Positions 9,070 through 14,439 of a stretch of DNA of 64,000 nt are shown one piece after another. A program made the position numbers and the translations under genes. The notes beneath the pieces are model-generated. The model was not told the DNA's origin. It did no database searches and was given only the letters and a program-made list of their open reading frames with translations. The DNA is taken from NCBI GenBank assembly GCA_965227515.1, contig CBDDFZ010000001.1, positions 4,006,152 to 4,070,151 of the forward strand. Direction: 5' to 3'. The DNA is from Alphaproteobacteria bacterium (GTDB lineage: Bacteria; Pseudomonadota; Alphaproteobacteria; CALKHQ01). Position 1 is the first letter of the stretch. Each line of letters starts with the position of its first letter.

Positions 9070-10239
9070 ATGCAAATTGGGGAGTCTCTTTGCGCCGGCG
9101 CGGTCGGCGCTGCGCTTGTCTGCATGCCACTGACGGCCACGGCCTTCGAATTGACGACGGCACTGCCCGGCGACGATCGCTTCACCGGTATCGCGACGAT
9201 GGCCAACGGCGACCTTGTGGCCGTCGGCAGCATCGACATCGAGGGCGATTGGCACGGCCGCATCGTGCGCCTGGACGGCGACGGCAATGTGGTCTGGGAG
9301 CAGTCGATGAACGTCGGCGACGACTGGGACCGCTTCAGCGACGTCACGGCCCTGCCCGATGGCGGCATCGTCGCCGTGGGCACCGCGCGCGTCGGCGGGC
9401 AGGATCATGGCTGGGCCGTGAAGCTGAGGGCCGACGGCTCGTTCAACTGGGAACGCACCCTCGGCGATATCGACCGCGGACTGAGCTCGCTGGCATCGGT
9501 CGTTGTCGATGACGACGGCTCGCTAGTGATCGGCGGTTATGCGGCGGGCGAGGACGGCAGCGGCGATGACGGGTGGGTCGTCCGGCTGGATGCCAACGGC
9601 CTCTATGTCAGCCAAACCAAGGTGCACCACGAGGGCCAGGACGAGATCAAGGCCATCACGCTCTTGCCCGATGGCGCCGTCGCCTTTGCCGGCCAGGCTG
9701 ACGCAACCAACGAGCGGACCGGCCTGGTCGGCGTGATCGATGCGTCCGGCGAACTGGCCTGGAAGCAGGCCATCGGCAAGGGCCGCGGCACGGCGTTCTG
9801 GGGCATCGTCGCATTGGCGGACGGCACGCTGGTGACCGCCGGCGCGGCGCGGGCCGACAATGGCGACCGCAACGGCCTCGTGGTCGGTCTTAGCGCGGAT
9901 GGCGAGCCGGTATGGAACAGTTTCCTGCCCGGCGACGGCACCGCCGCCCTGCTCGACTTGGCGTCCAATCGCACGGATGGCCTGTTCAAACCAGCCGGTC
10001 TGGTCGGGGTCGGTTGGACCTATGCCAACGACAGCGCTCTGCAGGGCTGGATTATCGCGCTCGACAGCGCGGGCGCAATGACCTGGCAGGAAACGTTTGG
10101 CGGCCCCGGCAACGGCCGGTTCTCGGCCATCGCCCCCCTCGGCGACGCATCGCTGGTGGCCGCCGGCGCCACGGACGGCGAAGGCCCTTCAAATGAAGAA
10201 GATGGCTGGATACTGACGCTGCCCGCGACGCGGGAATAG
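9070..10239 (+). CDS. Secreted repeat protein, probable beta-propeller
   Basis: Signal peptide; about seven repeats of DG..V.AG....GW...LD.DG...W. Confidence 0.7.
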   Translation: MQIGESLCAGAVGAALVCMPLTATAFELTTALPGDDRFTGIATMANGDLVAVGSIDIEGDWHGRIVRLDGDGNVVWEQSMNVGDDWDRFSDVTALPDGGIVAVGTARVGGQDHGWAVKLRADGSFNWERTLGDIDRGLSSLASVVVDDDGSLVIGGYAAGEDGSGDDGWVVRLDANGLYVSQTKVHHEGQDEIKAITLLPDGAVAFAGQADATNERTGLVGVIDASGELAWKQAIGKGRGTAFWGIVALADGTLVTAGAARADNGDRNGLVVGLSADGEPVWNSFLPGDGTAALLDLASNRTDGLFKPAGLVGVGWTYANDSALQGWIIALDSAGAMTWQETFGGPGNGRFSAIAPLGDASLVAAGATDGEGPSNEEDGWILTLPATRE

Positions 10240-10287
10240 CGGGCACGCGATCTTCAATAATGCACTTCGTCGCCCTCGCGCTTGTCG

Positions 10288-10554
10288 CCAACACACAATC
10301 GTCATCCTCGCCCTTGTGGAGAGGATCCATTTATGTCCAAACTATCAATGGTTTATGGGATTTGCACCGGCCGAGGGCGATCGACTGATTGTCAATGTGC
10401 CGCGCAGGCGATGCGCACACTAGGCTCGTTTCGAGACCTTGCCCATGAATGGGTCCTCGCCACAAGGGCGAGGACGACAACTTCTTTTTTGTCTTAGCGC
10501 GTAGCCTGTTTGGAACGAAGTGGAACCCGGGTTTCGCTCCGCTCCACCCAGGCT
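10288..10554 (+). repeat. Copy 1 of ~267-bp composite REP unit: 178-bp REPIN-like element (10301-10478) plus GTAG-type REP doublet
   Basis: Near-identical to 12025-12291; GTCATCCTCGCCCTTGTGG-GAGGATCCA ... TGGGTCCTCGCCACAAGGGCGAGGACGAC, then GTAGCC...CCACCCAGGCT. Confidence 0.9.
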
Positions 10555-10589
10555 TCTGTAACGGGCCATTGTTGGTCAATCCCTTTTTC

Positions 10590-10755
10590 GTCGTCCCGGC
10601 GCCTGGGTCATGCTTCTGTACGGGGTCGGCGCACGGCCGCCACCAAGATGGATATGCGAGGATCGGTCGGTCCAATCTACGGAAGCGTGCTCTCGTGCGA
10701 GGCGACATCCTGGATGGCGGCCTGACCTGATCCATCGTCCCGGCGCGGGACGGCG
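10590..10755 (-). ncRNA. Predicted IS1111-type bridge/seek guide RNA in the 3' non-coding region
   Basis: Matches to target flanks (10601-10608, 10677-10682) and IS ends (10613-10620, 10646-10651); possible closing stem CGTCCCG 10592-98 / CGGGACG 10746-52. Boundaries are approximate. Confidence 0.7.
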
Positions 10756-10827
10756 CTTGACGGGCCGGTGTCTGCGCCCGCCGAAGCTCGTGTGCTGGTT
10801 CTCCCTATGCGGCGGTCGTCTTTGCCA

Positions 10828-11871
10828 TTAGGCCGCTGCCATCGCCGGGCGCACCGGTCCGGCATGGTTGAACGCGGTGCCGTCAACCCACATCCGGTGC
10901 ATGATCACGGCCAGCCGGCGCGCCAGCGCGACCTTCGCCTTCCTCATGCCGGCTCGCCTGGCCAGCTTCATCGCCCAGCTCTTCAACCACCCGCCCTTGA
11001 TCGGCCGGGTCAGGATTACGTGCGCCGCCTCGTAAAGCGCTGCACGCACGTCCGCATCGCCCACCTTCGAGATCCGCCCCGTCATCTCGCTCTCGCCCGA
11101 CTGGCGCTTGGTCGGCGTCAGGCCGAAGTGCGCCCCCACCAGGCGCGACGAGGCAAACCGCCCGGGGTCGTCCACTCCCGACAAGTAGGTCAGTCCGACA
11201 ATGCTCCCCACGCCCGGCACCGTCATCAGCAGGCGAGCGCGATCGTCCGCCTGCGATGCCGCTCGGACCTGCCGGTCCAGCGCCGTGAACGATAGCAACA
11301 GGCCATCGCGTGCCGACAGCAGCGCCCCCGCCACCGCCTCCAGTACCGGATGCCCCGCCACAAGCTCCGAAATACGTGTCGAAAAGCTGCGCCTGGTGGT
11401 GTGCCCTACCTTCAGCCCGAAGTTCCGCAGCTGACCACGAAGGTGCATCTCAAGATCGTGCAGCTTCGCGCGGAGCTGGTCGCGACCCTTCAAAAGGGCC
11501 CGCATCTCCTGGGCCGCCAAAGACTTGCAGTGAACCGGCCGAAACCAGCCCACACGCATCAGCTGAGCAATCCCGCGTGCGTCCGAGCGGTCCGACTTCA
11601 CCGGCATCGTCGAAAGGGCTCGCGCAACATGACGCGTCTCCAGCAACTCAACCGAAAGACCGCCCTCGCTACATCCCCGCACAAGCCATTGCGACAACGG
11701 CCCCGCCTCAAGACCAATCCGCTCAACCGAAATCCCCAAAGACCCAAACCACAACAACAAACCCGCCGGCGTGCTCGCAATACGAGCCTCGCAGACAATC
11801 CCGCCCGCGCCGTCAACAACGCACACCGATGACCATTCCAAAGAAACGTCAATCCCGGCATAGTAGTTCAT
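10828..11871 (-). CDS. IS110-family transposase/recombinase
   Basis: GIDVS, GLEAG, KSDRSDA (DEDD RuvC-like); PGVG, GLTP..RQSG (catalytic Ser), ARRLA; GAGGAG RBS before ATG 11871. Confidence 0.95.
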   Translation of the reverse strand: MNYYAGIDVSLEWSSVCVVDGAGGIVCEARIASTPAGLLLWFGSLGISVERIGLEAGPLSQWLVRGCSEGGLSVELLETRHVARALSTMPVKSDRSDARGIAQLMRVGWFRPVHCKSLAAQEMRALLKGRDQLRAKLHDLEMHLRGQLRNFGLKVGHTTRRSFSTRISELVAGHPVLEAVAGALLSARDGLLLSFTALDRQVRAASQADDRARLLMTVPGVGSIVGLTYLSGVDDPGRFASSRLVGAHFGLTPTKRQSGESEMTGRISKVGDADVRAALYEAAHVILTRPIKGGWLKSWAMKLARRAGMRKAKVALARRLAVIMHRMWVDGTAFNHAGPVRPAMAAA

Positions 11872-12024
11872 GGTCGTCTCTCCTCGATGTCTTGGAGCGG
11901 CAAACCCGACTCCGTGTATGACACCGACATCTTGAGGGACGACCACTCATGCACGCCACCAAACAAGGGCCGTTAGCCCATCTACGATGCCCAGCGCTTG
12001 TCGCCGCGAAATTCACACTTCTCA

Positions 12025-12293
12025 CCAACACACAATCGTCATCCTCGCCCTTGTGGCGAGGATCCATTTATGTCCAAAGTATCAATGGTTTAGGGGATTT
12101 GCACCGGCCGAGGGCGATCGACTGATTGTCAATGTGCCGCGCAGGCGATGCGCACACTAGGCTCGTTTCGAGACCTTGCGCATGAATGGGTCCTCGCCAC
12201 AAGGGCGAGGACGACAGCTTCTTTTTTGTCTTAGCGCGTAGCCTGGGCGGAACGAAGTGGAACCCGGGTTTCGCTACGCTCCACCCAGGCTAC
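12025..12293 (+). repeat. Copy 2 of composite REP unit (REPIN-like 12038-12215 plus intact GTAG REP doublet ending GGCTAC)
   Basis: Direct repeat of 10288-10554 at offset 1737 with few substitutions. Confidence 0.9.
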
Positions 12294-12305
12294 GGTGCTG
12301 GTTTA

Positions 12306-12335
12306 CCCTCTCCCAGCGGTACGCTCGGGAGAGGG
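12306..12335. terminator. Hairpin CCCTCTCCC...GGGAGAGGG just downstream of nrdA
   Basis: Perfect 9-bp inverted repeat; no clear U-tract, so it may be a repeat remnant instead. Confidence 0.4.
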
Positions 12336-12360
12336 AGAGGAGTTCGTTTTCGCGGGACGC

Positions 12361-14439
12361 CTACTGGCAGCTCAGGCATTCCTCGTAGTTGCGCGGCTCG
12401 ACGGGATCGGCCTTTTCCGAGGGCGTGAGCGCGATGGTCTCCGCCCGCTCGGCGCGCTGCATCGACTTCGAGCGCAGGTAGTAGAGGCTCTTCACGCCCT
12501 TCTTCCAGGCCTGGAAGTGCAACTGGTGCAGGTCGCGCTTGTGGATGTCGGCCGGCAGGAAGATGTTCAGCGACTGCGACTGGCTGATATGCGGCTGGCG
12601 GTCGGCGGCATGCTCGATCAGCCACATCTGGTCGAGCTCGAAGGCGGTCTTGTAGACGTCCTTCTCGTGCTGGGTCAGGAAGTCCAGGTGCTGGACCGAG
12701 CCTTCGTTGGTGACGATGGACGACCACACCTCGTCGGTGTTCTGGCCCTTCTCCTCCAACAGCGCCTCAAGCGTCTTGTTGCGCACGCTGAACGAGCCCG
12801 ACAGCGTCTTGTGGGTGTAGGCATTGGCCGCGATCGGCTCGATACCCGGCGAGGTGCCGCCGCAGATGATCGAGATCGAGGCGGTCGGCGCGATCGCCAT
12901 CTTGTTGGAGAACCGCTCCTTGATGCCGTAGTCGGCGGCATCCGGGCAGGCGCCGCGCTCGTCCGCCAGCACTTCGGAGGCGGCGTCCACCTTGGTCTGG
13001 ATGTTCTTGAAGATGCGCTTGTTCCACACCTGCGCCATCACCGATTCCATCGGAATGTCGCGAGCCTGCAGGAAGCTGTGGAAGCCCATGACGCCGAGGC
13101 CGACCGAGCGCTCGCGCATGGCGGAGTACTTGGCGCGGCTCATGGAGTCGGCAGGCGCGTTATCGATGAAGTCCTGCAGCACGTTGTCCAGGAAGCGCAT
13201 GACGTCCTCGACCATCGTCGGATGGTCGTGCCACTCGTCGTAGCGCTCCAGGTTCAGCGACGACAGGCAGCACACGGCGGTGCGCTGCTGCCCGTCCGGG
13301 TCCAGCCCGGTCGGCAGCGTGATCTCGCTGCACAGGTTCGACATTTTCACCGGCATGCCGGCCAGCTTGTGATGCTCCGGGATCGCCCGGTTCACCGTGT
13401 CGCCGTAGATGATGTACGGCTCGCCGGTTTCGATCCGCGAGGTCAGGATGCGGATCCAGATCGAGCGCGCCTTGATGGTGCGGATGATCGTGTTGTCCTT
13501 CGGGCTGACCAGCGCCCAGTCCTCGTCGTTCTCCACCGCGCGCATGAACTCGTCGGTGATGACGACGCCATTGTGCAGGTTCAGCGCCTTGCGGTTGGGG
13601 TCGCCGCCGGTGGGCCGGCGGATTTCGACGAACTCCTCGATCTCGGGATGGGAGATCGGCAGGTAGACGGCAGCCGAGCCGCGGCGCAGCGAACCCTGGC
13701 TGATCGCCAGCGTCAGCGAATCCATCACCCGGATGAACGGCACCACGCCGGAGGTCTTGCCGTTGCGGCCGACGGTCTCGCCGATGGAGCGCAGATTGCC
13801 CCAGTACGAGCCGATGCCGCCGCCGCGCGCCGCCAGCCAGACGTTCTCGTTCCACAGGTCGACGATGCCTTCCAGGCTGTCGGACGCCTCGTTCAGGAAG
13901 CACGAGATCGGCAGGCCGCGCTTGGTGCCGCCGTTCGACAGCACCGGCGTCGCCGGCATGAACCAGAGCTTGGAGATGTAGTCGTAGATGCGCTGGGCGT
14001 GCGCGCTGTCGTCGGCGAAGTGGGTGGCCACCCGCGCGAACAGGTCCTGGAAGCTCTCGCCCGGCATCAGGTAGCGGTCCTGCAAGGTCTCCTTGCCGAA
14101 CACGGTCAGCAGGGCGTCGCGGCTTCGGTCCAGGCGCACACGGATGCCGCGCTCGTTCTGGAACACGTCCAGCACGGTCTCGTCGGCATGCGGTTCGCTC
14201 GCGGGGGTCTGAAAGTCCAGCACCTGACCATTCTCTTTCGACTGCGGGCCAGCGTCGACATCTGATTTGGCGACACCCGATTTGGCGGCCCTAGCTTCGC
14301 CATTCTTCAGCGACGCCCGTTCGCCCCCCGAACGGTACGGCACAGCACCATTCTTCGCCACCTCGCCGTTTACACCCGGCGCCGCACCGGCTTCGTCACC
14401 GGATGCACGCGAATGCTGAACCGCAACCGCACCGTCCAT
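12361..14439 (-). CDS. nrdA: Ribonucleoside-diphosphate reductase class Ia alpha subunit
   Basis: ATPVLSN, PISCF, SNLCSEI (thiyl Cys), AIAPTAS, KSLYY, C-terminal CLSCQ; start chosen at ATG 14439 (GGAG RBS). Confidence 0.95.
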   Translation of the reverse strand: MDGAVAVQHSRASGDEAGAAPGVNGEVAKNGAVPYRSGGERASLKNGEARAAKSGVAKSDVDAGPQSKENGQVLDFQTPASEPHADETVLDVFQNERGIRVRLDRSRDALLTVFGKETLQDRYLMPGESFQDLFARVATHFADDSAHAQRIYDYISKLWFMPATPVLSNGGTKRGLPISCFLNEASDSLEGIVDLWNENVWLAARGGGIGSYWGNLRSIGETVGRNGKTSGVVPFIRVMDSLTLAISQGSLRRGSAAVYLPISHPEIEEFVEIRRPTGGDPNRKALNLHNGVVITDEFMRAVENDEDWALVSPKDNTIIRTIKARSIWIRILTSRIETGEPYIIYGDTVNRAIPEHHKLAGMPVKMSNLCSEITLPTGLDPDGQQRTAVCCLSSLNLERYDEWHDHPTMVEDVMRFLDNVLQDFIDNAPADSMSRAKYSAMRERSVGLGVMGFHSFLQARDIPMESVMAQVWNKRIFKNIQTKVDAASEVLADERGACPDAADYGIKERFSNKMAIAPTASISIICGGTSPGIEPIAANAYTHKTLSGSFSVRNKTLEALLEEKGQNTDEVWSSIVTNEGSVQHLDFLTQHEKDVYKTAFELDQMWLIEHAADRQPHISQSQSLNIFLPADIHKRDLHQLHFQAWKKGVKSLYYLRSKSMQRAERAETIALTPSEKADPVEPRNYEECLSCQ

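Follow-up and report, generated by a model that had tools for sequence, protein, structure and literature searches.

Insertion sequences (IS) of the IS1111 kind carry seekRNAs in which, according to the text of Siddiquee et al. 2024 (PMC11187229), the complement of the top strand lies 5' of the complement of the bottom strand, the reverse of the arrangement in IS110 types. These RNAs are described there in a short form of 82-96 nt and a long form of 148-172 nt; for ISEc11 the short seekRNA is enough to move the element, and what the long form does is left open by the authors. Donor nucleotides of IS1111 elements are placed in a multi-loop by Durrant et al. 2024 (PMC11208160). Here we describe an IS1111-type element, inserted in a repetitive extragenic palindromic (REP) sequence, from a 64,000-nt stretch of an alphaproteobacterial genome (assembly GCA_965227515.1, contig CBDDFZ010000001.1, positions 4,006,152 to 4,070,151; this whole stretch is called the window, and all coordinates refer to it). 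We consider it highly probable that this is an IS1111 element with a bridge/seek RNA whose guides stand in the order right-target guide (RTG), left-target guide (LTG), right-donor guide (RDG), left-donor guide (LDG).

The element resembles ISEc11, ISPa11 and ISKpn4, as these are described in PMC11187229, in having a transposase in the range of 330-350 aa with the motif GL-P----S(T)G, subterminal repeats with short asymmetric extensions, a long downstream non-coding region, no duplicated target sequence apart from the shared core, and the same guide order. The predicted sizes, about 74 nt for the target arm between the ends of stem P2 and about 146-160 nt for the whole RNA, also fit seekRNAs of the ISEc11 type as reported there. 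Unlike these three, it targets the REP of an alphaproteobacterial genome and is known here from sequence alone. The text of PMC11187229 deals with target matches only, whereas here the donor segments were placed and tested for covariation; published supplements may already show donor matches for IS1111 elements.

With IS621, as described in PMC11208160 and PMC11208158, the element shares four predicted guides that each include the core dinucleotide, the reading of each DNA on both strands, and a REP target; it also shares a DEDD and serine recombinase whose C-terminal domain aligns. In contrast to those descriptions of IS621, its RNA is encoded downstream of the gene and not upstream, it has long subterminal inverted repeats, RTG and RDG, which come 5' in their respective pairs, are the guides complementary to the top strand, and the donor guides lie in a three-way junction where IS621 has a simple internal loop. 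An earlier reading of the window's letters (the original prediction) had held that the guide order is unlike that of IS621. The order does differ, because each pair is reversed, but it is no new architecture, having already been published for IS1111 seekRNAs. ISPpu9 of Pseudomonas putida is, in the account of PMC12288879, further removed: it belongs to the IS110 group, has no subterminal repeats and carries its bridge RNA upstream with a promoter of its own, and its transposition does not need the downstream Ssr9 RNA.

On the transposase strand the element runs from window position 11983 down to 10553, with the left junction ..CGT / AG / ATGGGC.. and the right junction ..TTACAGA / AG / CCTGGGT... 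It sits in the first copy of a direct repeat, D1 (10276-10559 and 12013-12296; 284 nt, 95% identity), and the second copy is uninterrupted at 12284-12296. This confirms the empty target and the CT/AG core of the original prediction, and both junctions were read where they had been placed. The same genome holds 20 full copies of 93-100% identity, all with the same ends, and the transposase frame is open in 20/20. Every one of these copies lies in a single orientation at ..GT-AG-CCYGGRTG.. with no target duplication beyond the shared core, and unoccupied sites have only one AG. The genome contains 112 more empty sites that match GTAGCCYGGRTGR, with a REP hairpin as their consensus. These data bear out the view of an intact IS1111-type element at a fixed dinucleotide in REP.

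The non-coding region downstream of the transposase gene measures 275 nt, compared with 110 nt upstream, and guide-like segments were found in it as had been claimed. An exact-match script recovered CCATCTT at 10651-10645, TACAGAAG at 10620-10613 and ACCCAGGC at 10608-10601. For the predicted LTG, CGTAG was present at 10681-10677, and the sixth base, C10682, matches the REP consensus and not the element's own flank. When the 230-nt body of the region was shuffled 5000 times with dinucleotide composition preserved, CCGTAG arose in 4.8%, CCATCT in 4.2%, TACAGAAG in 0.12% and ACCCAGGC in 1.5%, and all four arose together in 0/5000; the matches are therefore real and jointly unlikely. Were targeting a matter of protein only, and the region silent as to functional RNA, these matches would be remnants of end duplication or chance. 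The individual weakness of the two 6-mers, and the lack of a promoter-like site or a listed RNA run (see below), go some way with such a view, but guide and target covary across 25 guide families, the helices carry compensatory changes, and published work has shown RNA guidance experimentally for the family. We find this alternative hardly credible.

Covariation was followed in relatives of the element. A scan of genome contigs gave 75 loci, from which 53 near-full-length loci and L022 were parsed (54), the other 22 being partial matches left unparsed; 36 of the 54 had ends of the form AG-5 nt-repeat ... repeat-NGA-AG, and the 18 without AG...GA-AG ends were left out. Five plasmid copies were added, and a metagenome scan contributed loci from 80 of the 422 relatives that it reported, 52 of these 80 fitting the anchors and 28 being left out. 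Odd flanks or large insertions led to the exclusion of L064, L086 and L093, and missing anchors to that of L087, L089 and L090; L087 is outside all counts and is cited below from a hand-read alignment. The final set comprised 89 parsed elements, 84 of them with at least 10 nt of right flank. Among these parsed relatives the element ends are nearly constant and the targets widely different.

The RTG is an 8-10-nt segment that directly follows the invariant CG closing stem P2 and complements the right flank from the core outwards. A fixed 9+2 register failed on elements with 8-nt guides, so the RTG was scored by its longest complementary run instead. Summed over the 25 guide families, this run reached 206 compared with 112.4±7.4 in permutations (0/5000 as high), and among 62 unique guide/target combinations from the 84 elements it was at least 8 in 47 and at most 7 in 15. 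On the other side of the core, what precedes an invariant AGAU varies in step with the left flank (92 compared with 34.7±5.4; 0/5000 as high), which confirms the LTG originally predicted; in the window copy this guide is short, 3 nt plus the core.

The original prediction had the guides nested in the order LTG-RDG-LDG-RTG, with ACCCAGGC as the right-target guide. That 8-mer is a perfect complement of G+CCTGGGT in the window copy and, as the shuffles showed, an uncommon one. In its region, taken as the 16 nt that follow the LDG, the summed run across relatives was nevertheless only 100 compared with 108.4±4.2, and 4939/5000 permutations were at least as high as observed. No element other than the window's own reaches a run of 8, and the segment is a conserved CCYGGCG in relatives with unrelated targets. 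It is, moreover, unchanged in a second subfamily that prefers CCCGGATG, and it pairs with 10745-10739, where compensatory changes are seen. Among the four segments first proposed, the one for LTG follows the left target in relatives, those for RDG and LDG tend to follow the left end and the right end, and the one for RTG does not track its target. With the real RTG at 10717-10709 the nested order falls, and we regard it as very improbable. The RTG precedes the LTG (10681-10677) on the RNA strand, which is the published IS1111 order. The guides were not identifiable by single-sequence matching; one of the two strong 8-mers is structural, being a strand of stem P1.

Two further observations concern the target guides. 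In L065 and L066 the left flank is matched over 9 nt on the LTG side, and the RTG match is displaced by 2 nt, farther from the core; the sequence they target is palindromic, GCGCCA..TGGCGC. A "handshake" base after the LTG-core was considered and dropped, with one case for it (L088, a C with a left end starting in C) and one against (L159). The conserved UUGG after the LTG-core belongs to stem P2.

Within the genome, two subfamilies differ by one RTG base, A or G at 10711, and ACCCAGGC is the same in both. The 7 A-type copies (CCAUCCAGG) sit in CCTGG[G/A]TGG (7/7), with L020 (A-type) in the perfectly complementary CCTGGATGG, and the 13 G-type copies (CCAUCCGGG, the shorter subfamily) sit in CCCGGATG (9), CCCGGGTG (2) and CCTGGGTG (2). 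In every case RTG and target can be joined by Watson-Crick or G-U pairs. The CCCGGATG variant holds 9/13 G-type copies though it makes up about a fifth of the sites (binomial p = 0.0002), and subfamily and REP variant are associated (Fisher p = 0.001; 6 vs 13 copies, L020 left out), the three REP variants being CCTGGGTGG, CCCGGATGG and CCCGGGTGG. Judged by these sequences, the A-to-G guide change with different REP variants is a case of natural retargeting within one genome. The subfamilies (L001-L019; the window copy is L001) are further set apart by a 9-bp indel and by several substitutions near the transposase stop codon, so that their C-termini differ.

For the donor side, the LDG 7-mer is identical to that of the same element's right end in 88/89 elements, in the variants ACAGAAG, AGAGAAG and AGCGAAG, the last four bases being fixed by the search pattern used to locate the LDG. 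The original 8-nt LDG match is accordingly kept in part: the 7-mer at 10619-10613 tracks the right end, and the eighth base, U10620, is not conserved. The RDG tracks left-end variants in L054, L068/L100 (a two-base change) and L088, and likewise in L087, read by hand.

These donor data bear on a different explanation, in which only the target arm (RTG, LTG, P2 and P3) guides, the protein reads the IS ends through the subterminal inverted repeats, and RDG and LDG are kept for RNA processing or for excision from the integrated state. The 82-nt short seekRNA of ISEc11 moved a mini-IS at 42%, compared with about 15% for the long form whose role its authors leave open, and this agrees with such an arrangement, as do the three lineages, named below, in which the RDG does not follow the left end; the IS ends vary so little in the group that covariation tests have little power. 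Against it stand the agreement of the LDG with the right end through three variants, an RDG that follows four left-end variants, the two-base change of L068/L100 included, and the donor-complementary nucleotides that Durrant et al. (PMC11208160) report in IS1111 bridge RNAs. We consider a target-only guide RNA unlikely, and favor an RNA with both target and donor guides.

A weak signal may extend the four-guide reading. The two bases 3' of the LDG-core equal the first two right-target bases at 19/40 positions compared with 12.4±1.9 in permutations (11/20000 as high). It is conceivable, though we would put it forward only tentatively and think it rather doubtful, that the long RNA of this IS1111 clade is a true two-DNA bridge RNA mirrored with respect to IS621: the top-strand guides would come first, the long target guide would read the right half-site, and a bottom-strand "handshake" after the LDG-core would read the integrated right junction. 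If this is true, the task of the long form, with its donor guides and handshake, would be excision or the exchange of the second strand, which would explain both the persistence of the long form and the fact that in some assays the short seekRNA is enough.

RNAalifold on 21 sequences predicted stems P1, P2 and P5, to which the basal pairs of P3 were added. Over the 30 pairs of these four helices, 88.1% were paired compared with 76.3% in shuffles, and the covariation score was 0.382 compared with 0.192, with 0/500 shuffles as high and slid controls at or below 0.119. The outer part of P1 corresponds to the closing stem of the original prediction: the 7-bp complement 10752-10746 / 10598-10592 exists and its equivalent is kept in relatives, where cognate duplexes have an energy of -8.87 kcal/mol and non-cognate ones of -6.57. 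For the outer and the inner part alike, cognate duplexes were stronger than non-cognate ones, with 0/2000 permutations as good for each. The inner helix (CGCCGGG at 10745-10739 with 10607-10600) shows changes on both sides in 4/8 pairs. The P3 hairpin forms in the constrained fold, and the minimum-free-energy fold of the window copy's RNA (z = -3.28) holds the 10752-10746 / 10598-10592 pairing. The helix and guide evidence together gives an RNA with a closing stem P1, a target arm (P2, the RTG/LTG loop and P3), and RDG and LDG on either side of P5 in a three-way junction; donor guides in such a junction fit the multi-loop that PMC11208160 gives as the place of IS1111 donor nucleotides.

Two other pairings were seen. 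Helix S2 (AGGCCGCC with GGCGGCC), dominant in the single-sequence fold, was rejected, with a covariation score of 0.167 compared with 0.144 in shuffles, 22/500 shuffles as high and a slid control that was higher. Also conserved is a local hairpin of GUCCC (10751-10747) with GGGAC (10741-10737), which overlaps the 5' strand of P1 and competes with that stem, so that both cannot form together. It may be an alternative conformer or switch, a processing signal, or an artefact.

In the mechanism that we propose, the element is an IS1111-family IS that would integrate at the AG of ..CGT-AG-CCYGGRTGG.. in the REP hairpin, and its 3' non-coding region would encode a bridge/seek RNA, about 160 nt long (10752-10592), with the long stem P1 closing it. 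Inside P1 would lie the target-binding arm, that is, stem P2 with an internal loop and hairpin P3 on top. In the predicted three-way junction of P1, P2 and P5, the RDG would complement the core and left end, and the LDG would have the same sense as the right end and core. We infer that this RNA is made and bound by the protein, and that a circle carrying a junction promoter is formed. If IS621 and ISEc11 are a guide, the DEDD/Ser recombinase and its RNA would then bring the circularised element together with its REP target, and strands would be exchanged at the AG.

Several points weigh against this proposal. The short, target-only seekRNA of ISEc11 sufficed for transposition, and the donor guides may therefore be dispensable. 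Relatives are kin to each other, so the permutation counts overstate independence; the LDG, part of which was set by the search pattern as described above, varies in only three sequence states, maybe reflecting few independent events. The RDG does not track the left end in the L055 group, L129 and L085. Fifteen of the 62 guide/target combinations match poorly, for example those of L054, L057, L136, L138, L152, L155 and L171, in which the RTG is mismatched to the DNA beside the right end; possible causes are trans-guided insertion by a sister copy, later mutation of the guide, or chimeras of metagenome assembly. The optimum fold of the window copy (-75.6 kcal/mol) pairs the RTG with the RDG region, and the conserved architecture with free guides comes to -63.6, which is 12 worse. 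Rfam covariance models gave no relevant match in 10000-12500 at E up to 1. A scan of 10450-12100 for promoter-like (sigma-70-like) sites found 0 in the integrated element, and the 4 terminator-like sites found in the same interval are repeat arms and uninformative. A search of sequencing runs listed no RNA run containing this stretch.

The transposase matches Pfam PF01548 (E 9.6e-13) and PF02371 (E 1.1e-19). Its C-terminal domain aligns with the transposases of ISCro4 (9t56) and IS621 (8wt6), the GLTP....SG stretch included: GLTPTKRQSG (S258-G259) is aligned to GLTPRRYESG, the serine stretch of ISCro4, and the IS1111 motif GL-P----S(T)G is present. In the N-terminal domain GIDVS, LEAG and SDRSDAR line up with ISCro4 in a weak alignment (i-Evalue 140), and no N-terminal match to IS621 came up; the residue roles given to D8, E55, D94 and D97 are predicted ones. 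The rule for IS1111 elements given in PMC11187229 calls for subterminal inverted repeats at least some 11-13 bp long, which leave about 7 nt beyond them on the left and about 3 nt on the right. Here the extensions outside the repeats are 7 nt on the left (core included) and 3 nt on the right if the mismatched first repeat position is counted, and so counted they fit the 7/3 rule. A TTGAC near the right end has the same place in most aligned relatives (L085 and L110 have TTGCG), and, judged by published Pjunc promoters, TTGACC is a likely -35 box for a promoter at the circle junction. The element described here is a typical, active-looking IS1111-type IS and adds one member to a kind already known. 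Feature coordinates are collected in the table.

Table. Features of the IS1111-type element and its surroundings in the window.
Feature	Position	Strand	Remarks
IS1111-type insertion sequence	10553..11983	minus	AG core copy at each end included; 1429 bp plus one core
Core AG (CT on + strand), left junction	11982..11983	minus	At both junctions in all 20 copies; once in empty sites
Core AG (CT on + strand), right junction	10553..10554	minus	At both junctions in all 20 copies; once in empty sites
Transposase gene, 347 aa	10828..11871	minus	DEDD/RuvC-like N-terminal domain and Tnp C-terminal domain (Pfam)
Left subterminal inverted repeat	11958..11975	.	18 nt, 78% complementary to 10559-10576
Right subterminal inverted repeat	10559..10576	.	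18 nt, partner of 11958-11975
TTGACC, putative -35 box of junction promoter	10574..10579	minus	Would form only in the circular intermediate
Closing stem P1, 5' strand	10739..10752	minus	Outer 10752-10746, inner 10745-10739; RNAalifold consensus
Stem P2, 5' strand, base of target-binding arm	10718..10733	minus	13 pairs, 7 changed on both sides, 91.6% of cells paired
RTG, CCAUCCAGG	10709..10717	minus	Covaries with right flank in relatives
Apical hairpin P3, between RTG and LTG	10686..10706	minus	Basal pairs: 3/4 changed on both sides, 75% of cells paired
LTG, CGU + core AG	10677..10681	minus	Same sense as top strand, pairs with bottom strand
Stem P2, 3' strand	10660..10674	minus	Listed pairs all canonical in window copy
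RDG, UCCAUCUU	10645..10652	minus	Complements core and first bases of IS left end
Hairpin P5, between RDG and LDG	10624..10641	minus	5 pairs, 4 changed on both sides, 100% of cells paired
LDG, ACAGA + core AG	10613..10619	minus	Same sense as IS right end
Closing stem P1, 3' strand	10592..10607	minus	Inner 10607-10600 (overlaps the RTG of the original prediction), outer 10598-10592
Uninterrupted paralogous target site	12284..12296	+	Reads ..CCACCCAGG CT ACGG..; neighbouring copy of flanking repeat

The repeat unit at 10276-10559 and 12013-12296 is composite, consisting of an element of about 205 nt with hairpin-forming ends followed by the REP of about 57 nt that the IS targets. The 205-nt element has 8 genome matches of at least 200 nt, the two window copies included, and each of its termini has more than 100 matches. 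A truncated copy of the IS (G000:C1:998355-999181) joins query positions 1-719 (88%) directly to 1310-1431 (98%), which looks like an internal deletion that took out most of the bridge RNA region. At G000:C1:3321404, C2:1183678, C1:85703 and C1:2520681 the C-terminal domain of the transposase has weak matches, each with one in-frame TGA; these may belong to another, degraded or recoded, IS110-family element of the same genome.

The element adds one probable case to the natural RNA-guided recombinases whose code can be read. Its two subfamilies, one RTG base apart in one genome and placed on different variants of the same REP, constitute a natural experiment, and the set of 89 elements is a worked map of an IS1111-type bridge RNA with four helices and four guides. 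A perfect 8-nt target match in a single sequence proved to be a structural strand, and only covariation revealed it as such, a lesson for the reading of other elements. For the family, the relatives provide evolutionary evidence, from few sequence states, that the donor-matching parts of the long RNA stay in step with the IS ends.

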